The notes: generated from the sequence alone by a model not told the origin. Positions 5,905-63,410 are shown, numbered from the stretch's first letter. The stretch: 64,000 bases of DNA from a candidate division WOR-1 bacterium RIFOXYB2_FULL_46_45 (GCA_001771585.1 MEUE01000001.1:92744-156743); one strand, 5' to 3'. Program-made: numbers and translations.

Positions 5905-5978
5905 TTAAAATTCCTCCTTTTCTTTTGGTTTCATTATAGAACATTTTAGAAATGCCCGCAACCTGCTATAATTCGCGC

Positions 5979-30497: not shown

Positions 30498-31834
30498 CCG
30501 ACCTCTTCGTATCTCATCTCTTTATTGCAGAATTTGGTAACGTCTTTGCGAAAGACCAGCTCAACGACTCCAATCGGGCCGTTGCGCTGTTTGGCGATAA
30601 TAATTTCGGCGATATTCCCCCGCTCCGACTGCGGATTATAATAATCTTCGCGATGGATAAACATCACCACATCGGCGGTCTGTTCAATCTCTCCCGATTC
30701 TCTCAAGTCCGACAGGCGGGGAATCCGGTCGGGACGCTGTTCCACCGCGCGGGAGAGCTGTGACAGGGCGATCACCGGAAGCTCCAGTTCGCGGGCCAGC
30801 GTTTTGAGAGATCTGGCAATCTCGGAGATCTCCTGCACCCGGTTGTCCGAGCGGGAAGCCCTCCCCTGCATCAACTGCATGTAATCAATCATCACCAAGC
30901 CCAGCCCCTTCTCCATCTTCAGCCGTCGGCATTTGGCGCGGATCTCCATGGCGGTGATGGAAGAAGAATCGTCGATAAAGATCGGCGCTTCGGAAAGTTT
31001 GGATAAGGCCTTGGTCAATTTTTTCCACCCCTTGTCCGGCAGGGTCGCAGTCTTCAATTGGAGAGCGTTGATCTCCGCTTCGGAGCAGAGCATCCTCTGC
31101 GCCAGCTGTTCTTTGGACATTTCCAAACTGAAGATCGCCACCGGAATATTGAAGCGGATCGCCATGTTCTGCGCCATGTTTAGCGCCATGGCGGTCTTTC
31201 CGACCGACGGCCGTGCCGCCAGGATAATCAGGTCGGCATTCTGCAGTCCGGCGGTTATATTGTCGAGATCGGTAAAGCCGGTCGGAACCCCGGTTATATG
31301 CTGGTTTTTTCCATACAAGCTGTCGATCTTATCGAGCACATGTTTCAAGACCGAATCAAGCTTGGTAAAGCCCTCTCGGGTCTTGCGCATAGCGATATTG
31401 AAAATGGTCTTTTCCGCCCGATCCAAAACCAATTCGACATTTTCCGGCTCTTCAAAAGCCTCCTGGACCATAAAGGTTCCGGCCTCGATTAAACGGCGCA
31501 GGATCGCTTTCTCTTCCACAATCTTGGCGTAATATTCGATATTGGCGGCGGTCGGAACAGAGTTAATCAGGTCGGTCACATAGACCGTTCCGCCGACCGC
31601 GTCGATTCTCCCGTTCTTGCGAAGCATCTCCGAAACCGTCACCAGGTCAACCGGCTCTCCCCGTTCAAAAAGATCGAGAATCGCTTCAAAGATAAAAGAG
31701 TGCGCGTCGCGGTAAAAACTGTCCGGCTTTAAAATTTCGATCCCCTTGACGATCGCGGTCTTGTCGATCAGCATGGAGCCAAGGACCGATTGTTCGGCGG
31801 CTACGTTTTGGGGTGGAATCCTCTCATCTGGCAT
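30494..31834 (-). CDS. dnaB: Replicative DNA helicase DnaB
   Basis: N-terminal PQNVAAEQSVLGSML and a RecA-like ATPase (GARPSVGKTA). Confidence 0.95.
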   Translation of the reverse strand: MPDERIPPQNVAAEQSVLGSMLIDKTAIVKGIEILKPDSFYRDAHSFIFEAILDLFERGEPVDLVTVSEMLRKNGRIDAVGGTVYVTDLINSVPTAANIEYYAKIVEEKAILRRLIEAGTFMVQEAFEEPENVELVLDRAEKTIFNIAMRKTREGFTKLDSVLKHVLDKIDSLYGKNQHITGVPTGFTDLDNITAGLQNADLIILAARPSVGKTAMALNMAQNMAIRFNIPVAIFSLEMSKEQLAQRMLCSEAEINALQLKTATLPDKGWKKLTKALSKLSEAPIFIDDSSSITAMEIRAKCRRLKMEKGLGLVMIDYMQLMQGRASRSDNRVQEISEIARSLKTLARELELPVIALSQLSRAVEQRPDRIPRLSDLRESGEIEQTADVVMFIHREDYYNPQSERGNIAEIIIAKQRNGPIGVVELVFRKDVTKFCNKEMRYEEVG

Positions 31835-34220
31835 TGGACATATATTCTACCATAATTTCTTTGGCTCGGTCGATTACTTCGTGGGGCAGACCGGCCAGTT
31901 TTGCCACCTGTATCCCGTACGACTTATCGGCAGGCCCCTCCATTATTTTATGGAGAAAAGTGACGTGGTCTTTTTCGTCCAGCACCGCAACGTTTAAGTT
32001 TTTCATCCCCGGGTGTTTTTCGGCCATCGCGCAAATTTCGTGGTAGTGGGTCGCGAACATCGTCTTCGCCTTTATTTTGGTATGGATATATTCGGCCACC
32101 GCCGCCGCGATCGACATCCCATCAAAGGTGGCGGTTCCCCGCCCGATCTCGTCCAAAATTATCAAACTCTTTTCCGTGGCGTTATTTAAGATATTGGCGG
32201 TTTCGGTCATCTCAAGCATAAAGGTTGATTGTCCGGAAAAAATATCGTCCATCGCTCCAATGCGGGTAAAAACGCGGTCAACCAGGCCGACTTCCGCCTC
32301 TTTTGCGGGGACAAAGGATCCGATCTGCGCCATGAGACAAATCAAGGCAACCTGGCGCATATAAGTGCTTTTGCCCCCCATATTCGGACCGGTGATCAGA
32401 AGAAAACTTATTTCATCCGAAAGCTCAACATCATTTGGAACAAATCTGTGCTCACCAAGCATCTTTTCAACTACCGGGTGTCGACTCTCTGATAATCTGA
32501 TGATCTGATGATCTGATGATCTGACCACCGGCTTGCAGTAGTTATTTGCAACCGCAACCTCAGCAAGAGACAATAATACATCCAATTGTGCAAGAATATG
32601 GGCAGTTTGCTGTAAGCTCTTGGTATGTTTCGCCACCTCTTCACGAATTTGGCAAAAGATTTCATATTCCAGTTTCTTCATCCGATCGTCCGCATTTAAA
32701 ATTAAAGCTTCCCGGTCTTTTAATTCCGGAGTGATATATCTTTCCGAATTGACCAGGGTCTGTTTGCGGATATAGTCGGACGGCACCTGGTCCAAATTGG
32801 ATTTGGTGATATCGATATAATAACCGAAGACACGGTTGAAGCTGACCTTGAGCGATTTGATCCCGGTCCGCTGGCGTTCTTTTACTTCAAGTTCGGCAAT
32901 CCACGCTTTCCCCTCTGTTGTCGCTTTTTTAATCTCATCAAGCTCCGCGTTATATCCCGACCTAATTATGCCCCCTTCGGTTATTTGGATGGGGGGATCG
33001 TCGATTAGTGATCCCTGGATAAAGGCAGAAAGATGTCTCACGGATTCGATATCAATATCCATTTCTAATAATTCCGCCTTGCAATTTTTTAAAACCTCGA
33101 CTATAGCAGGCAGTTTCCGCAGCGATTCTGAAAGCGCGATCAAATCCCGCGCGTTGCAGCTCTTCGCCGCCACTTTGGCTGTCAATCTCTCCACATCGGA
33201 GATCGCTTTCAATTGCTTCCCCAGCTCTTCGCGTAAAATAACCGAGTTAAAAAGTTCAAGAACCGCATCCAATCTATTTTGAATCTTTTCCGTATTCAAA
33301 AGCGGTTGTAGAATCCAGGATCTCAATAATCGTGAACCCATCGGTGTTTTGGTCTGGTCCAGCACCCAAAGCAAGCTCCCCTTGAAGCTTTTGTCACGGA
33401 TAGTTTTAACCAATTCCAGGTTCCGGCGGGTGCTTGAATCGATCAACATGAAATCTCCCACCCGATACGGGTTAATCTTATTAATATGGTCAAGCGGGGT
33501 CTTTTGAGTGTCGGATAAATAATCAAGAATTGCCGCGGCGGCCTGAAGTCCGACCGGAAAATCGGTCACGCCGAAGGATTCGAGGTTGTTGATTTGAAAA
33601 TGTTCTTTGATCCTTTCGGAGGCCGATTCGGAATCGTATTTATCGACGAATGTGGAGGCCGGTTTGAAACCGGCCTTTACAAAATTTTGTATCATATCCG
33701 AAACCAACAATTCGGACGGATTGATCCTATCAATTTCTTCTTTAACCTTTTGTTCCGAATCGACCTGGGTAATCTTGAATTCGCCGGTCGAGGCATCGGC
33801 GTAGGCGATGCCGTATTTCCCTTTATCAAAGGCAATTGCCATCAGGTAATTATTCGATTTTTCGTAGAGCATGGAAGATTCTATAATCGTCCCAGGGGTA
33901 TAGATTTTGATCACTTCGCGTTTGACGAGCCCCTTGGCCAAAGCAGGATCCTCTATCTGTTCGCAGATGGCGATTTTATAGCCCTTCTCTATCAATTTTT
34001 GAATATAATTTGAAGCGGCGTGGTACGGAATACCGCACATCGGCATCCGATTTTCGTCTTTTCCTCGGCCGGTTAGGGTCAGTTCCAATTCACGGGAGGC
34101 CAAAACGGCGTCGTCGTAGAACATTTCATAAAAATCCCCGAGGCGGAAAAAGAGGATGGCATCCCGGTGCTTGGACTTTATTTCATGGTATTGGGCCACC
34201 ATGGGGGTTGGTTCGGACAT
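31824..34220 (-). CDS. mutS: DNA mismatch repair protein MutS
   Basis: Domains I-V present with the GPNMGGKST Walker A. 798 aa. Confidence 0.95.
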   Translation of the reverse strand: MSEPTPMVAQYHEIKSKHRDAILFFRLGDFYEMFYDDAVLASRELELTLTGRGKDENRMPMCGIPYHAASNYIQKLIEKGYKIAICEQIEDPALAKGLVKREVIKIYTPGTIIESSMLYEKSNNYLMAIAFDKGKYGIAYADASTGEFKITQVDSEQKVKEEIDRINPSELLVSDMIQNFVKAGFKPASTFVDKYDSESASERIKEHFQINNLESFGVTDFPVGLQAAAAILDYLSDTQKTPLDHINKINPYRVGDFMLIDSSTRRNLELVKTIRDKSFKGSLLWVLDQTKTPMGSRLLRSWILQPLLNTEKIQNRLDAVLELFNSVILREELGKQLKAISDVERLTAKVAAKSCNARDLIALSESLRKLPAIVEVLKNCKAELLEMDIDIESVRHLSAFIQGSLIDDPPIQITEGGIIRSGYNAELDEIKKATTEGKAWIAELEVKERQRTGIKSLKVSFNRVFGYYIDITKSNLDQVPSDYIRKQTLVNSERYITPELKDREALILNADDRMKKLEYEIFCQIREEVAKHTKSLQQTAHILAQLDVLLSLAEVAVANNYCKPVVRSSDHQIIRLSESRHPVVEKMLGEHRFVPNDVELSDEISFLLITGPNMGGKSTYMRQVALICLMAQIGSFVPAKEAEVGLVDRVFTRIGAMDDIFSGQSTFMLEMTETANILNNATEKSLIILDEIGRGTATFDGMSIAAAVAEYIHTKIKAKTMFATHYHEICAMAEKHPGMKNLNVAVLDEKDHVTFLHKIMEGPADKSYGIQVAKLAGLPHEVIDRAKEIMVEYMSNAR
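32489..32524. repeat. 8-bp tandem repeat (CTGATGAT)x3, plus imperfect flanking units, inside the mutS CDS
   Basis: The sequence reads ctgataat ctgatgat ctgatgat ctgatgat ctga and encodes RSSDHQIIRLS. Confidence 0.9.
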
Positions 34221-34236
34221 AAAGAAATTATAACAT

Positions 34237-34596
34237 TTATTTAATCAACAAGGTTTTTTTCTTAAAATCTATCTGTAGGAATTTACCTGCCAACAACCTG
34301 GTTCCCAAAAGAATTTCTTTGGCATGCGAGGACAATACTCCAACTTTACGTTTTTTTCCGTCCAATTCAACTTCTCCGATATAAACTCTCGATTCGATAA
34401 TCTTGCCGTCAGCTAATTCGTACTTTTCATAACCGAGAAATTCCCATCCCGATTCAAGAATCAAATCGTGTGGAACGCTTAAAAACCCATTGAATCCCGT
34501 ATCGACAACCGCCGGCTGGGATATTTTTCGGCCGTTAAAAACCAGTATTATTTCTATAATGGGCTCTAAATCGTCGCTTATGACACCTTTAATCAT
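34237..34596 (-). CDS. Retropepsin-like (clan AA) aspartic protease
   Basis: VVDTGFNG carries the D-T/S-G active-site motif; 119 aa. Confidence 0.6.
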   Translation of the reverse strand: MIKGVISDDLEPIIEIILVFNGRKISQPAVVDTGFNGFLSVPHDLILESGWEFLGYEKYELADGKIIESRVYIGEVELDGKKRKVGVLSSHAKEILLGTRLLAGKFLQIDFKKKTLLIK

Positions 34597-34598
34597 TG

Positions 34599-34826
34599 CT
34601 ATCTAAGCTTATGAACGGAGGGAAATCCTATTCTCAAGAAATAAAAGATTTTATTGGGATGTTGCTTCTTTGCTTTTAGCGCCGCGTCAAGAGTATCTTT
34701 TCCTATCGTATAATCGGCCGATCCCGGCTCAATCGCAATGACATCACCCTTATGTGTTTTTTCAAGCTTGGTTTTTACTTTGCTATAAATTGATTCGCTT
34801 TTTTCAATAAACCGGTCTTTAGTCAT
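34599..34826 (-). CDS. Small protein, presumptive partner of the retropepsin-like protease
   Basis: 75-aa ORF that ends 2 nt before the protease start. Assigned by context only. Confidence 0.3.
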   Translation of the reverse strand: MTKDRFIEKSESIYSKVKTKLEKTHKGDVIAIEPGSADYTIGKDTLDAALKAKKQHPNKIFYFLRIGFPSVHKLR

Positions 34827-34940
34827 TTCAATGCCTCCTTTTTACAAAATAATTATAGCCCTTCGACAGGCTCAGGGCAAGCAAAAAAACGCATGAAATT
34901 TTTGGCTTATCGAGACAATCGGCATTTGGACAAAGGGGTA

Positions 34941-35363
34941 TTAGCTTCCGTGATTATAAAGATCTATCCCCGCCTTCTTCAACGCTTGTTCTGATTCTCC
35001 CGCTTCGTATTTTTTAATTACCCTATCGGCAGCTTTACATAATTGAGCGGAATGTTTTGCGCTTTGCCTATTACTTTGGAGGTTTTCTTCTACTCTATCG
35101 GAGTTACAGGAAACTGTTTTTTTAAGGTTTTTTGGATCATGAAACATATAAACCATCACTTCATATGATTCTCGAACTTTCGGTGTTTCACAGTTTCCAA
35201 GGTCTTTCTCACATTTCAGATAAGATTTAAGCGTATCGACAGCTTTTGTTTGTGCTTTTTGTACTTCTGGGGTCAAACATTTACGTGAATCGCCTGTTTT
35301 GTTTAGGCATGCCCTATAATCCCTCATTGTCTTTACCGGATTAAACCCATTAACTCTTGTCAT
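34941..35363 (-). CDS. Cys- and Lys-rich small hypothetical protein (paralog A)
   Basis: 140 aa with 8 Cys and no signal peptide. It shares its MTRV start and ~110-bp 5' leader with 35569-35964. Confidence 0.4.
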   Translation of the reverse strand: MTRVNGFNPVKTMRDYRACLNKTGDSRKCLTPEVQKAQTKAVDTLKSYLKCEKDLGNCETPKVRESYEVMVYMFHDPKNLKKTVSCNSDRVEENLQSNRQSAKHSAQLCKAADRVIKKYEAGESEQALKKAGIDLYNHGS

Positions 35364-35462
35364 CTTTTTTCCTCCTCTATGGGAATGTTGTTTACTGCTC
35401 TACTGGCAGTTGCCGTCCCCTTACACAGATATTATCGTGACATCGGACAAAAAACTTGCATC
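35352..35462 (-). repeat. Duplicated ~110-bp 5' leader/RBS/start region, copy 1
   Basis: ~95% identical to 35953-36062. It includes the GGAGG RBS and the first 4 codons (MTRV). Confidence 0.85.
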
Positions 35463-35493
35463 TTCCCATTCCCCCTCAAAAACAATCCCTAAT

Positions 35494-35546
35494 GCGGAAA
35501 AAGAGGATGGCATCCCGATGCTTGGACTTTATTTCATGGTATTGGG
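35494..35546 (-). pseudogene. Duplicated fragment of the mutS 5' coding region (codons ~8-25)
   Basis: A 53-bp stretch nearly identical to 34143-34195 inside mutS, with one g/a mismatch. Confidence 0.8.
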
Positions 35547-35568
35547 GATGCGAACTCTTTTCTGGTAA

Positions 35569-35964
35569 TTAAGAAGCATGTGGATCGTCTAAGTTCTTTC
35601 CAAAATACTCCCTGGCTTTTTGATCTGTTCTCGCGGCTTCTTTTCTCTGAGCTTTTTCTTGTCTTTCGACTGTTTCTTTTATATGACAAAGATACGATTC
35701 CAAAGTTGCTGGCCCTTTTTGAGCTTTTTTACAATTTTTCAACATTGGATCTTTTGGCCAAATCTCAATAAAATTCCGCGCAGAAGCCTCAAGCAAATCA
35801 ACTCCTACTATCTCTTTGCCCGGTATTTTGGCTTGCCCAGCTGCCTCCAGTCCTGCCTTATGGGCTTCTGCTTTACACTGGGTTACACCTTTTCCTCCAT
35901 CAAGACACTTCTTTAATGTGACTATAGTAGCCAAAGTGAATGGTTTTAAAGAAACTCTTGTCAT
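35569..35964 (-). CDS. Cys-containing small hypothetical protein (paralog B)
   Basis: 131 aa with an MTRV start. Its leader is duplicated from paralog A. Confidence 0.4.
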   Translation of the reverse strand: MTRVSLKPFTLATIVTLKKCLDGGKGVTQCKAEAHKAGLEAAGQAKIPGKEIVGVDLLEASARNFIEIWPKDPMLKNCKKAQKGPATLESYLCHIKETVERQEKAQRKEAARTDQKAREYFGKNLDDPHAS

Positions 35965-36062
35965 TTTTTTCCTCCTCTATGGGAATGTTGTTTACTGCTC
36001 TACTGGCAGTTACCGTCCCCTTACACGTATATTATCGTGGCATCGGACAAAAAACTTGCATC
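35953..36062 (-). repeat. Duplicated ~110-bp 5' leader/RBS/start region, copy 2
   Basis: See copy 1. Confidence 0.85.
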
Positions 36063-36076
36063 AGATTTTAAAAATT

Positions 36077-37996
36077 TTATTTTCGCAGTTCAACACCCAG
36101 CTTCTGAACCAACGCATCGCAGATTTTAGTATGGAGCTCGTTCACCTCTTCAACTTTCAAGGTGCGAGAAGGATCGCGGTAGGTTATCCGGTAGGCGCGG
36201 CTGTTATTATAAATATCAAATAATTGAATCTCTTCCACTAGATTGCCGCCGGTTTGGCGGATGATGGCCAGAATTGAAGAATGGGTTACCCCCTCTTTGA
36301 CAAAAAAGGCGACATCCCGGTCGGTTTTGGGAAACCTGGGTAAAGGAGCGTGCTTTTTGGTTGCCGCGGCATTCTTAAGCAGAAGCTCCAGGTCGAGTTC
36401 AAAAACAAAGACCGGTTCGGTAAAATCATAGTTGCGGGCAATCGGGATCGCCAGTTCCCCCAGCCACCCGATCCCCTCCCCTTCAAAAACAATCCCCGCC
36501 GATTTACCGAGATTAAGCAGGTTGGTCTTGATCTCTTTGAATTCAAACGAACCGAATTCGTTAAGCAGCGCGGAGACCGCCGCTTTGGTAAAAAAGAAAT
36601 CGGTTTTGGTCAAAGCGCCGGCCAGCATCATCCTTTCAATATGCGGCTCCCCTTTGTAATAAACTTTTCCGATCTCAAAAATCTTCACATCGTCAACTTG
36701 ATGCCTTCTATTATGATCGACGACTTTAAGGAGAGAGGGAAGCACAATCGTCCGCAGGACCGATTCCTCTTCCGTTAATGGGTTGGCAACCTTGATGAAA
36801 TCCCGCAAATGCGCGTCGCGCAGTTTGAGCCGGTCGGGATACTGCGGGTCCAGGATGCTAAAAGTCTGGACTTCAAAGAGCCCCGCCCCCGCCATAATTT
36901 CCCTGGTTTTTACGCAAAGCCGGTCAAGCGGATTGTCTTCAATCTCCTGGGGAAGCTTCGCTTTGATCTTGTGGTAGCCGTAAATCCTGGCAATCTCCTC
37001 AATCACGTCAATCTCCCGCTCTATGTCTCCGGCGCGGTAAAGAGGGATCCCATTCAAAAAATTGAGGCGCTTCAAGATGGCGTCGATCTCTTTTTTGGAG
37101 AGTTCCGTCCCCAGGATGCGGTTGACCGCTTCGGTCCTGACTTTGATAATTTTTGGTTCGCGCTCAAAAGATTTCTTGTCGGCCTTAAAATCACAAATTG
37201 TCCCTTCCGCCAATTCGGTAATCAGCGCCGCGGCGGCATGGAGCGCCATTTCAACCCCTTCCCAGTCCACCCCTTTTCCAAAACGGATGGAGGATTCGGT
37301 CCGCAATTTCAAAAACTGCGACGATTTGTTGGTTGAAACCGGATCGAAAAAAGCCGACTCAAGGAGAATATTTTGCGTCCGCTCCGAAACCTCGGATTCC
37401 TTTCCTCCCATGATCCCGGCAACGGCAATCGGACGGGTAGAATCGGCAATCACCAGAATCGAAGGATCAAGCTTATGCTCAGTACCATCGAGAGTTTGGA
37501 TTGTTTCACCTTCCGCCGCTTTTCTTACAACAATCTTGTTAACTTTGTCAAAATCAAAAGCGTGAAGCGGCTGGCCGTATTCCAGTAAAATATAATTGGT
37601 AATATCAACGATATTGTTGATCGGACGCAGACCGCAAGCCACCAGGCGTTCTTTCATCCAATCGGGGGAATCCTTTATCTTCACCCCTTTTATCACCCGC
37701 GCCATATACCGCGGACAGAGCTTGCGCTCTTTCACTTCAATTGGAACATTCGTTTTTTCCTTAGTACTTAATACTTTGTACTTAGTACCGTGCAACTTAC
37801 TGTCTAAAATCGTTACAATTTCTCTAGCAATACCTATAACAGACTGCAAATCTCCCCGATTCGGCAGGATATCAAGCTCAAGCAGTTCACCCCGCGCGGT
37901 TGTTTCGGTCCCCGCCATCGTCAGCCGCTCGGCGAGTTCTTCCGGCGAGATCTTTATGTCGACATATTCTTTTAGCCAGCTAATCGGTATTTTCAT
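36077..37996 (-). CDS. pheT: Phenylalanine--tRNA ligase beta subunit (compact form)
   Basis: B1, B3/B4, B5 and catalytic-like domains are recognisable. At 639 aa it lacks the N-terminal OB-fold tRNA-binding insert. Confidence 0.9.
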   Translation of the reverse strand: MKIPISWLKEYVDIKISPEELAERLTMAGTETTARGELLELDILPNRGDLQSVIGIAREIVTILDSKLHGTKYKVLSTKEKTNVPIEVKERKLCPRYMARVIKGVKIKDSPDWMKERLVACGLRPINNIVDITNYILLEYGQPLHAFDFDKVNKIVVRKAAEGETIQTLDGTEHKLDPSILVIADSTRPIAVAGIMGGKESEVSERTQNILLESAFFDPVSTNKSSQFLKLRTESSIRFGKGVDWEGVEMALHAAAALITELAEGTICDFKADKKSFEREPKIIKVRTEAVNRILGTELSKKEIDAILKRLNFLNGIPLYRAGDIEREIDVIEEIARIYGYHKIKAKLPQEIEDNPLDRLCVKTREIMAGAGLFEVQTFSILDPQYPDRLKLRDAHLRDFIKVANPLTEEESVLRTIVLPSLLKVVDHNRRHQVDDVKIFEIGKVYYKGEPHIERMMLAGALTKTDFFFTKAAVSALLNEFGSFEFKEIKTNLLNLGKSAGIVFEGEGIGWLGELAIPIARNYDFTEPVFVFELDLELLLKNAAATKKHAPLPRFPKTDRDVAFFVKEGVTHSSILAIIRQTGGNLVEEIQLFDIYNNSRAYRITYRDPSRTLKVEEVNELHTKICDALVQKLGVELRK

Positions 37997-38071: not shown

Positions 38072-39052
38072 TCAAAATTGTTTCAAAAACCTCATGTCAT
38101 TTTCAAAAAACAACCGGATATCTTTGATCCCGAATTTCAGCATCGCGATCCGCTCGATCCCCATTCCAAAGGCATAACCGCTCCAAACTTCCGGATCATA
38201 ATCGACAGCTTTAAAAACATTCGGATCGATCATCCCGCAGCCCAAAATCTCCAGCCAGCCGTCTCCCCACTCCACATCCACCTCCGCGGAAGGCTCGGTG
38301 AACGGGAAATAGCTGGGGCGGAAACGGACTTTTTTTTCTTTTCCAAAAACGGCGTGGAGAAAAGCGGTTATAACCCCTTTCAGGTTGGCGAAAGTGATGT
38401 TTTTGTCCACCGCAAAGCCTTCAATTTGATGAAAAACGGTCGAATGGGTCGGGTCTGCGTCCCGCCGGAAAACCCTCCCCGGAGCAATTACCGCGAGCGG
38501 CGGTTTTTTCTTCTCCATCACCCGAATCTGCACCGGTGAAGTGTGGGTGCGCAAAAGGGTCTCTTCTCCAACGTATAGGGTGCTCCACATGTCGCGCGAA
38601 GCGTGATGCTTGGGGATGTTGAGCGCTTCGAAATTATAATAATCGGTCTCGATATCGGGTCCGCTTTCGACAATAAATCCAAGCCGCAGAAAAATCTCTT
38701 TGACCTCTTCCATAACCTGGGTGATGGGATGTAATTTACCCCTGGCATAACCTCTGCCGGGGAGGGTCACGTCAATCGCGTCGGTTTTTATTTTCTTCTC
38801 CGTCTCAAGGTTTTCAAAAAGGGTCTTTTTTTCGGCGATCATATCTTCGATCCGCCGCTTGGCGATGTTGAGATTCTTTCCGAAAACCGGGCGTTCTTCG
38901 GGAGTTAGGTCCTTCAAATGCTGGAGCAATTCGGTGATCAAACCCTTCTTCCCCATATAATGGACGCGGAAATTTTCCAGTTCAAGAAGGTTCTTGACCT
39001 CCGTAAGCTGTACAATCGCCTGGTTTTCTATCGCTTGAATTCTTTCAGCCAT
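38072..39052 (-). CDS. pheS: Phenylalanine--tRNA ligase alpha subunit
   Basis: Class II motifs 1-3 (FRPSYFPFTEPS; GWLEILGCGM). Confidence 0.95.
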   Translation of the reverse strand: MAERIQAIENQAIVQLTEVKNLLELENFRVHYMGKKGLITELLQHLKDLTPEERPVFGKNLNIAKRRIEDMIAEKKTLFENLETEKKIKTDAIDVTLPGRGYARGKLHPITQVMEEVKEIFLRLGFIVESGPDIETDYYNFEALNIPKHHASRDMWSTLYVGEETLLRTHTSPVQIRVMEKKKPPLAVIAPGRVFRRDADPTHSTVFHQIEGFAVDKNITFANLKGVITAFLHAVFGKEKKVRFRPSYFPFTEPSAEVDVEWGDGWLEILGCGMIDPNVFKAVDYDPEVWSGYAFGMGIERIAMLKFGIKDIRLFFENDMRFLKQF

Positions 39053-62142: not shown

Positions 62143-63410
62143 CGTCCTACTCCGTAGTATTCAATGCCGACCTCCGCCATCCGCTTTTTGTCGTAAATAT
62201 TCCGCCCGTCAAAAACAATCGCGTTCGGAGCCAGTTTCTTTACCCGCTCAAAATCGAGCTCCCGAAATTCATTCCATTCGGTCGCAAAAACGATCGCCTC
62301 CACCCCTTTGACCGCATCGTACGGATTGGTAAATTCGGAGAGCTTTGAGACCGGATCGTATACCGCAACTTTTGCTTTTGCTTTCTTAAGGGCGGCGACA
62401 ACTTTTAATGACGGCGCGTCTCTCAAATCGTCGGTCTCCGGCTTAAAGGCCAGACCCAACACCGCGATCTTTTTATTTTTTAAATTACCCAAACGCTTAT
62501 GGATCTTTTTTATAAAAAGATTGATCTGATTATTATTCACCGCTCCGGCGGCGTTTAAAATCTTTGGTTCATAGCCCGACTTTTTGGCCAGATGGATAAG
62601 AGCCGAAACGTCTTTGGGGAAGCAGGAGCCCCCGTAGCCCAGTCCGGGATTCAAAAACTGCCCGCCGATCCTTTTGTCCAACCCCATTCCATAGGCGACT
62701 TCGGTCACATCGGAACCGACTTTCTCACAAATATTTGCGATCTCGTTTATGAAAGAGATCTTGGTCGCAAGAAATGAATTGGACGCGTACTTAATAAGTT
62801 CGGCGCTTTTGACCGAGGTAAAAATAATATGAGCATTGAGCGGACGGTAAAGTTCGGTTATAAGATTGAAGGCGCGGTTGTTGGATGCCCCGATTACAAT
62901 CCGGTCCGGATGCATAAAATCGGAGATGGCCGATCCCTCCCGTAAAAATTCCGGATTGGAGACGACCGAAAAGAGCTCATCATCCACCCCTTCTTCCAAA
63001 AGTATCTTTGTGACGATGTCACCCATCCCGACAGGGACAGTGCTCTTGTTTACAATTACCTTAAAACCGTCTTTCTTCATCATTGCCAGAGCGATTCCTT
63101 CTGCCACCGCACGGACGGCCGAAACATCCGCCTCGCCGTCTTTTTTCGGCGGAGTCCCGACCGCGATAAAGACAACTTCCGACGCGATAACCGCAAAAGA
63201 TAAATCGGAAGAGAAAGAGAGGCGTTTTGCTTTTTGGTTCTTTTTGACCAGCTCAGGCAACCCCGGCTCGTAAAAAGGGACAATCGCTTTTTTTAGTGAG
63301 GAGATTCGCTTTTTGTCTTTGTCGACACAGATAACCTCATGCCCCAAATTGGCCAGGCAGGCGCCGGTCACCAAACCAACGTATCCCGATCCGACTACCG
63401 CTATTTTCAT
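62139..63410 (-). CDS. ugd: UDP-glucose 6-dehydrogenase
   Basis: [12 protein letters not shown] and the GGSCFPKD catalytic Cys. Confidence 0.9.

Follow-up and report, generated by a model that had tools for sequence, protein, structure and literature searches.

The vsp, vsa and vlp families of Mycoplasma and the pilE/pilS system of Neisseria carry conserved 5′ expression regions in front of variable coding bodies. Integron cassette arrays are rows of small, unrelated and often orphan genes that occupy a fixed chromosomal site and share one orientation. Variable regions linked to mismatch repair are also known, among them the enterobacterial mutS–rpoS region, mosaic mutS alleles, and SpyCIM1 in mutL of Streptococcus pyogenes. 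Transcripts that combine a 5′-terminal stem-loop with a strong Shine–Dalgarno (SD) sequence are exemplified by the 5′ untranslated region (UTR) of Escherichia coli ompA and the STAB-SD of Bacillus cry3A. Here, we describe a locus between pheT and mutS of candidate division WOR-1 bacterium RIFOXYB2_FULL_46_45, analyzed within a stretch of 64,000 nucleotides (nt) of contig MEUE01000001.1 (92744-156743; hereafter the window, with positions counted from its first nucleotide). At this locus, two small open reading frames (ORFs), A and B, share a nearly identical leader, and a piece of mutS is duplicated beside them. We interpret 34221-36076 as a lineage-specific, low-GC insertion island in which ORFs A and B each carry a copied expression module of a conserved promoter/5′-UTR class, the duplications being recombination scars. 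The probability that we assign to this interpretation is roughly 0.6.

The island resembles each of the described systems in part. Like an integron array, it aligns small, unrelated genes in one orientation at one site, but intI, attI, and attC are absent and each gene has its own predicted promoter and ribosome-binding site (RBS). It shares with the Mycoplasma and Neisseria families a near-identical upstream region and first codons followed by differing bodies; those families share signal peptides and use dedicated machinery or silent copies, whereas the island proteins are unrelated, show no evident signal peptide, and were not seen to switch. As in the regions linked to mismatch repair, a lineage-specific island abuts mutS, and mosaic alleles and a mutS-null variant occur in the same population; this island differs in phylum, content, and partner gene (pheT) and lacks phage-like excision functions. 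The leader recalls the 5′ stem-loop stabilizers in having a hairpin a few nucleotides from the inferred transcript start, with a varying sequence and a retained structure; an A-rich unpaired segment and a very strong SD sequence come next. It differs from them in an additional invariant CAUUCCC box and in being conserved, together with its promoter, across the phylum.

A duplicated leader and a duplicated piece of mutS

A repeat search aligned the leader body of ORF A (35365-35462) with that of ORF B (35965-36062) at 96% identity over 98 nt. Including the ATG and three further codons, the repeat comprises 111 nt at 95.5% identity (blastn E 8e-46) and has sharp edges at both ends. A 49-nt core of the leader occurs exactly twice in the 64-kb window, where shuffled sequences are expected to contain none. 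An earlier note on this DNA, made from the sequence alone, had described leaders of about 110 bp and about 95% identity and two small proteins sharing only the start MTRV; both descriptions agree with our data, as the two proteins begin with MTRV and then differ. The second repeat is a piece of mutS, detected at 34130-34195 and 35481-35546 with 92% identity and extended by blastn to 34126-34195 and 35476-35546 (71 nt, 91.5%, E 7e-22). Its 53-nt core (34143-34195 and 35494-35546), also noticed earlier, is in direct orientation with 52 of 53 positions matching (one mismatch), and the fragment corresponds to mutS codons 9-31.

The leader and mutS repeats are thus 92-98% identical, while the coding bodies of A and B share nothing. 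Since the repeat pairs have diverged by only 2-8% and the bodies are unrelated, A and B did not diverge from each other after a duplication. Two new junctions can be recognized, one joining the 3′ flank of ORF B to mutS codon 9 and the other connecting mutS codon 31, with some 13 nt in between, to the leader start; an additional break in the similarity between A and B lies past codon 4. The duplications of the leader with its four codons and of mutS codons 9-31 are best read as scars of recent duplicative or illegitimate recombination. The features of the locus are as follows.

38072-39052, minus strand: pheS
36077-37996, minus strand: pheT, 639 amino acids (aa), left border of the island (Pfam B3_4, B5, tRNA_synthFbeta, FDX-ACB)
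35953-36062, minus strand: leader copy B, including the ATG and the three further shared codons (MTRV) (repeat search; homologous leaders in L092, L091, and L097-L099)
36055-36060, 36030-36037, 35971-35987, and 35962-35964, minus strand: boxes of leader B, namely TGCAAG, CGATAATA, CATTCCC-ATA-GAGGAGG, and ATG
35569-35964, minus strand: ORF B, 131-aa orphan, Lys-rich, 4 Cys, GC content at third codon positions (GC3) 0.29
35476-35546, minus strand: relic copy of mutS codons 9-31 (repeat search, blastn)
35352-35462, minus strand: leader copy A, including the ATG and three shared codons (repeat search)
35455-35460, 35431-35436, 35371-35387, and 35361-35363, minus strand: boxes of leader A, namely TGCAAG, GATAAT, CATTCCC-ATA-GAGGAGG, and ATG
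34941-35363, minus strand: ORF A, 140-aa orphan, 6 Cys, GC3 0.30
34852-34880, minus strand: sigma-70-type promoter-like site TTGCCC-17-TATAAT upstream of the 75-aa gene (consensus scan)
34599-34826, minus strand: 75-aa partner protein of the protease module (homology to a 91-aa gene of a Tolypothrix plasmid)
34237-34596, minus strand: 119-aa clan-AA (retropepsin-like) aspartic protease with a DTGF motif (TIGR03698)
34227-34232, minus strand: TATAAT box 6 nt 5′ of the mutS ATG (read from the sequence)
31824-34220, minus strand: mutS, 798 aa, right border of the island, with the source fragment at 34126-34195 (Pfam)
23692-23739, plus strand: third, promoter-only copy of the leader class (nhmmer E 0.024)

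The gene order on the minus strand is therefore pheS, pheT, ORF B, ORF A, the 75-aa gene, the 119-aa gene, and mutS. The same order is on record for 24 contigs of the NCBI, JGI, and ENA assemblies, and in base-by-base comparisons the island is identical in L004 and L010 and in L002 and L003 (comparison loci carry L numbers). Because these independent assemblies agree, the island is not an assembly artefact.

Two further observations concern the surroundings of the mutS relic. Past its TAA stop, the ORF B frame enters the relic in the mutS frame after seven intervening codons (...DDPHAS*LPEKSSHPQYHEIKSKHRDAILFF; 35476-35571); this may reflect chance, at one in three, or a trace of junction formation. 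A pheT-like 20-nt piece next to the relic (35470-35489 versus 36477-36496, 19/20) has a blastn E value of 0.019 within the window, a second similar match lies at 62199-62220, and 14 of its 20 nt are already covered by the mutS homology. This piece is probably a chance match, not templated filler.

A low-GC insertion at the pheT–mutS junction

In four relatives (L093, L094, L095, and L101; MutS 67-68% identical), the pheT stop lies 1-2 nt from the mutS ATG, and on this basis the 1.85-kb low-GC stretch of the window is regarded as an insertion. Elsewhere, the slot between the two genes holds a methyltransferase gene (L012), a 76-aa ORF (L096), a 251-aa ORF (L092), or a 411-aa ORF on the opposite strand (L100). 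In a rough neighbor-joining tree of MutS, the adjacent state occurs in two clades and the basal L012 is tightly packed. Taken together, the tree and the varied contents of the slot indicate that the junction is a recurrent insertion site. The composition of the island is distinct from that of its surroundings. The GC content is 0.38-0.41 across 34200-36000 versus 0.45-0.52 in the flanks, and GC3 is 0.29-0.30 in ORFs A and B and 0.37-0.40 in the 75-aa and 119-aa genes, compared with 0.55-0.56 in mutS and pheT and 0.52 in a reference set of 14 genes.

The 76-aa insert of L096 ends in an 8-bp hairpin (CATGAACC...GGTTCATG; 5930-5975) followed by a T-rich run, on account of which it looks like a self-contained promoter–ORF–terminator unit. 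In another Saganbacterium (L011, 2538-2765), a 75-aa fragment of an IS200-like (Y1_Tnp) transposase lies directly 5′ of mutS, a further sign of insertions collecting upstream of this gene. A TATAAT box without an SD sequence is located 6-7 nt 5′ of the mutS ATG in all five genomes with an upstream insert (window 34227-34232; L091 ~9976; L092 ~9983; L096 ~5991; L100 ~5990), and the relatives with adjacent pheT and mutS have no such box. Its position suggests a leaderless-type mutS promoter and mRNA. On the other border, PheT of the window (639 aa) lacks the N-terminal tRNA_bind domain (PF01588) that is present in the 802-aa PheT of Saganbacterium L012; the protein has 660-665 aa in L093-L096, L100, and L101, and 769 aa in L092.

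Orphan status of ORFs A and B

ORFs A and B both encode small, basic, Lys-rich proteins. The chance of an ORF of either length in DNA of 39% GC is about 1e-4, and the two are taken as real genes on account of this length and the strong, conserved GAGGAGG SD sequence and ATG. A codon-usage log-likelihood ratio separated real small genes poorly from antisense ORFs and left the coding status of A and B unproven by this measure. The earlier note had called them Cys-rich paralogues. Their Cys contents of 4.3% (six residues, A) and 3.1% (four residues, B), versus about 1% in MutS and PheT, bear out the first part of this description. The second part finds no support: BLASTP of A against B gave E 3.7, and the Smith–Waterman score of 30 compares with a shuffle mean of 30.6 (p 0.5), so that A and B are not demonstrable paralogues at the level of their sequences.

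No homologues of A or B were found among 5.8 billion clustered proteins, and an exhaustive HMMER search with A over 1.84 billion representatives returned only A itself and a spurious match to a repeat protein. Pfam, NCBIfam, PHROGs, and PADLOC gave no match for either protein, and blastn and tblastn detected no source copy of A or B elsewhere in the window or in any compared locus. Single-sequence AlphaFold2 models are all-alpha with low to moderate confidence (predicted local distance difference test scores of 60 for A and 73 for B), and a Foldseek search of the B model against the PDB yielded nothing below E 0.8. Two candidate relationships were rejected. P0123 was evaluated as a remote homologue of A (E 1.8e-4, five matched stretches), but it is a repeat protein and the homology is not credible. 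The motif C..KAQ..L.SYL.C, shared by A, B, and the 251-aa protein of L092, failed shuffling tests (p 0.3-0.5).

The leader class in the Margulisiibacteriota

In the leader, TGCAAGTT-N16-CGATAATA is followed by a hairpin whose sequence varies, the CATTCCC box, GAGGAGG, and the ATG. Far from being restricted to the two copies of the island, it has homologues at seven other places, namely the same locus of close relatives, unrelated Margulisiibacteriota loci, and a promoter-only copy in the window, which supports the view that it is a conserved cis-acting element. L092 has the same synteny and a MutS of 77% identity; there, the window leader aligns with the 95 nt that separate pheT from the 251-aa slot gene, and the shared parts occur in the order TGCAAGTT, 16 nt, CGATAATA, ..GTAAG.., hairpin, CATTCCC, a gap of three to four nt, GAGGAGGAAA, and ATG. 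L096 has just the two upstream boxes, directly past pheT. The combination TGCAAGTT-N16-CGATAATA is invariant in the two island copies, L092, and L096, and was found nowhere else among the 96 loci then compared. A profile hidden Markov model (nhmmer) detected a full leader in L091 (E 5e-8), where it precedes a 1497-aa protein without a Pfam domain just upstream of mutS.

A three-block pattern scan of public metagenome contigs yielded three more leaders at unrelated loci, L097, L098, and L099; one of these leaders neighbors rpe and a PASTA kinase gene, one a glycyl-radical-like gene, and one is divergent from argF. Two of these three contigs (L097 and L099) carry genes annotated by NCBI as Margulisiibacteriota. 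The same pattern gave no matches in a viral contig collection, and exact scans with a 24-mer of the leader in metagenome and viral contigs and with a 21-mer in genome contigs also gave none, these collections evidently lacking this organism. The promoter-only copy in the window (23692-23739, plus strand) reads GTGCAATTTTT-N13-CGATAAAT, followed by an SD sequence. It precedes a 348-aa ORF (23742-24788) with no Pfam domain, a GC3 of 0.35, and a Lys-rich N-terminal tail. Directly upstream of this copy lies the gene of a 125-aa HEPN-domain protein (23252-23629), which may be half of a HEPN/nucleotidyltransferase toxin–antitoxin pair.

Several common features lie outside the search pattern: a T-rich stretch before ATGCAAG, GTG(T/A)AG after the −10 box, GAGGAGG 2-4 nt past CATTCCC, and the ATG 6-9 nt beyond. 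The distance from AAGTTT to CGATAA is 14 nt in every copy, and CGATAA is invariant in all nine copies. The nine downstream proteins (A, B, and proteins of 348, 251, 1497, 76, 420, 167, and at least 234 aa) are mutually unrelated where compared; Pfam recognizes TPR repeats in one of them and nothing in the other eight. In all nine genes, GC3 is lower than in the core neighbors, by 0.09-0.25. The pattern of a conserved leader with a different coding sequence also holds between species. The leader class appears to drive unrelated, poorly conserved, AT-rich genes and looks like the signal of a predicted regulon.

Putative promoter and 5′-UTR features of the leader

In our reading, the leader is the putative promoter and 5′-UTR portion of a regulon rather than a riboswitch or a terminus of a mobile element. 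The consensus of sigma-28 (FliA/SigD/WhiG) promoters is TAAAGTTT-n11-GCCGATAA (PMC2859248). The invariant CGATAA matches the −10 element GCCGATAA, with its core CGA, and the upstream box keeps AAGTT(T) of the −35 element TAAAGTTT, with GC, AC, or GT instead of TA at positions 1-2. Since these two boxes at their fixed spacing resemble the consensus, a putative sigma-28-like factor may read the leader promoter, an assignment that we make tentatively and with the odds somewhat against it. The resemblance consists in two A/T-rich boxes, AAGTTT upstream and CGATAA downstream, at a constant distance. In contrast to sigma-28 promoters, the upstream box of the leader starts with GC, AC, or GT, and no flagellar or chemotaxis genes follow it; the spacer between the octamers is 12 nt in every copy versus 11 nt in the E. 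coli consensus. A tolerance of sigma-28 for spacers of 11 or 12 nt is reportedly described in the Chlamydia literature. Some Margulisbacteria have been reported to possess flagellins and FlgV (PMC7018530, PMC11607428).

A hairpin of differing sequence lies between the −10 box and CATTCCC in L092, L097, L098, and L099 (p 0.0007-0.027 versus shuffles), and Fisher's combined p value for the window copy, L092, L097, and L098 is 9e-5. The 5′ hairpin thus folds better than shuffles in four of five leaders, which are too few sequences for covariation. The whole window leader folds no better than shuffles (z −0.3 to −1.8). Searches against Rfam were negative for the window at the gathering score, for 34800-36150 at E<=1, and for L097-L099 at E<=0.1. 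An internal complementarity proposed earlier (ctactggcagt...gacggcaactgccagtag) proved to be a single segment, 35400-35417, read on two strands, and no inverted repeat of note exists inside the leader. Of the previous suggestion that the conserved leader could be a cis-regulatory RNA, the conserved cis-element is retained, and the RNA part finds little support: the window copy folds like shuffled sequences and has no Rfam counterpart.

The protease module

The 119-aa protein matches TIGR03698 with 63.8 bits, above the curated cutoff of 57.35, and carries the catalytic motif VDTGFNG at residues 31-37. Its homologues, at 30-35% identity, are encoded on plasmids of Tolypothrix, Nostoc, and Microchaete (Nostocales). 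On the Tolypothrix plasmid, a 91-aa gene overlaps the downstream protease gene by 4 nt, and the 75-aa protein of the island is related to this 91-aa protein (pairwise E 5e-9), while it has no Pfam family and no match in PADLOC, PHROGs, or NCBIfam. The supposed pair of retropepsin-like proteases thus resolves into one clan-AA protease and a small non-protease partner. Judging from these homologies, the two genes are a conserved, mobile two-gene module with its own predicted sigma-70-like promoter.

Instability of mutS in the population

The coding sequence of mutS contains 4.6 copies of the 8-nt tandem repeat TCAGATCA, at 32488-32524 of the window (minus strand) and at 12840-12872 of L003, in a variable loop before RHPVVE. 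One 8-nt unit is missing from an ENA assembly of the same strain, and this is the sole difference from the NCBI and JGI assemblies in 20,423 nt. This loss splits MutS into products of 581 and 212 aa and occurs in three contigs, versus six with the intact protein. The repeat is a candidate slipped-strand on/off (mutator) switch. In addition, mosaic alleles are present. Over residues 1-680, P0133 shares 99.9% identity with the window MutS, and its last 152 residues are 89.5% identical to P0004 and 78% identical to the window MutS; P0004 is itself 84% identical to the window MutS. P0004 and P0133 have a C-terminal tail ending in QVSLF, presumably a clamp-binding-like motif, that the 798-aa window protein lacks. 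The repeat contraction and the mosaic alleles, which lie outside the coordinates of the island, fit a recombination-prone neighborhood of mutS.

Discussion

A recombination event that brought a second gene block beside mutS and under these same signals would explain the repeats at the pheT–mutS junction. We favor homology-facilitated illegitimate recombination, in which a block of a related donor (leader, A, the 75-aa gene, the 119-aa gene, and mutS) would have entered a resident locus composed of pheT, leader, B, and mutS. Homologous recombination of the donor block within or past mutS, combined with illegitimate joining in the 5′ end of the resident mutS, would have left the resident leader and B upstream together with the mutS relic. 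A later loss of relic codons 1-8 would also be required.

Several points weigh against our interpretation of the island. Import predicts a relic of codons 1-31, and only codons 9-31 remain, so that the extra deletion is needed; a tandem duplication from the leader to mutS codon 31, followed by replacement of the content of the upstream copy, fits the data equally well. The leader copies were counted within the 64-kb window, a part of the genome. L097-L099 were selected by exact matches to the three blocks, and the conservation of these blocks there is by construction. We infer the promoter and 5′-UTR status of the leader from position and conservation; a consensus scan called no sigma-70 promoter inside it, and the hairpin of the window copy is weak (p 0.24). 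The −35-like box starts with GCAA rather than TAAA, and alteration of these positions abolishes sigma-28 dependence in E. coli, where T1→C and A3→T abolish the activity of the aer promoter (PMC2859248).

The sharing of the leader by A and B might alternatively reflect tandem paralogues that arose by local duplication, with bodies diverged beyond recognition and a leader that selection or gene conversion held identical. In favor of this view, A and B are alike in their small size, basic and Lys-rich composition, possession of Cys, and predicted all-alpha fold, and both contain C-x9-C (residues 19/29 and 20/30). Nevertheless, this history is improbable, as their similarity is no better than that of shuffled sequences by either measure given above, identity falls from about 96% to none exactly past codon 4, the companion mutS relic with its similar divergence points to one recent rearrangement rather than an ancient duplication, and the slot proteins of relatives are likewise unrelated to A and B. 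The earlier note had proposed cassette exchange or duplication by recombination at the leader. Recombination is borne out by the near-identical repeats around unrelated bodies, but a dedicated, integron-like or site-specific exchange system using the leader as its recombination site is very improbable, even though the leader is combined with different coding sequences both within the genome and between species and the slot content differs in every relative. In the precomputed Pfam annotation of called genes, no integrase, recombinase, or transposase occurs in the 10 kb flanking each side; no attC-like inverted repeats mark the 3′ ends of A and B, and the only inverted pairs in 33000-37500 are six that are weak or far apart. 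Instead of depending on one common promoter, each gene carries a separate promoter copy, leader-bearing genes stand singly at unrelated loci, and there is no variation among the compared assemblies or the 24 recorded contigs. The direct mutS repeats could instead be functional, recombination between 34126-34195 and 35476-35546 serving as a programmed mutator switch: A and the protease module would be lost along with the mutS promoter and codons 1-8, which would switch off mismatch repair. In its favor, the two copies of the 53-nt core run in the same direction with 98% identity, mosaic mutS alleles exist, and mutS is demonstrably switched off in the population by another route, the contraction of the 8-nt repeat. 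Yet the deletion junction is present in none of the 24 recorded contigs, the deletion would be irreversible, and a repeat of 53-71 nt is a poor RecA substrate; we give such a switch very little credence.

A different question is whether the leader acts as a structured cis-regulatory RNA, such as a riboswitch, a thermosensor, or a protein-binding element, with the CAUUCCC box and the hairpin controlling translation. The invariance of the CATTCCC box 2-4 nt 5′ of GAGGAGG in seven of seven full leaders, the hairpin of variable sequence in four independent homologues, and the ability of UUCC to pair with GGAA of the SD region are consistent with this view. It is nonetheless unlikely, although less so than the alternatives above: there is no Rfam match even at E 1, whole leaders fold no better than shuffles (z −0.25 to −2.1), and the independent sequences are too few for covariation analysis. 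Moreover, the best-conserved blocks are the two upstream A/T-rich boxes at their fixed 16-nt spacing, a DNA-level promoter signature, and L096 and the copy at 23692-23739 retain just this two-box part. Among these possibilities, an insertion island with copied expression modules and recombination scars is the interpretation that we retain. Within it, the repeats, the synteny, the leader conservation, the orphan status of A and B, and the composition are established observations, and the promoter function, the sigma assignment, and the sequence and mechanism of the rearrangements are deduced.

The island itself is ordinary in kind, an insertion hot spot that holds a mobile module and orphan genes. 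As a well-defined, putative regulon promoter/5′ UTR, the leader class is new; to our knowledge, none has been described before in this phylum. A single scenario may be sketched that unites the observations, though it is doubtful as a whole. A phylum-wide Margulisiibacteriota regulon, with a dedicated sigma-28-like factor and a CAUUCCC-box 5′ UTR, would drive floating, fast-turnover, AT-rich orphans that enter operon junctions as promoter–gene units, and the mutS relic and the leader duplication would record a loss and rescue of mutS while mismatch repair flickers through the 8-nt repeat.

We know of no cultured members, known promoters, or known regulons in this phylum. The element TGCAAGTT-N16-CGATAATA, hairpin, CATTCCC-N2-4-GAGGAGG thus offers a searchable cis-element for it, and as this element appears to mark lineage-specific orphan genes, it provides a handle for finding and grouping them. 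The locus also shows a route by which a new gene can come under ready-made signals, through the copying of a 111-nt segment of promoter, RBS, and start. Finally, a mismatch-repair gene is found amid signs of instability in one natural, clonal groundwater population, namely the island, the 5′ relic, the mosaic alleles, and the repeat-mediated frameshift; the rise and rescue of mutators therefore become testable in metagenomic time series.

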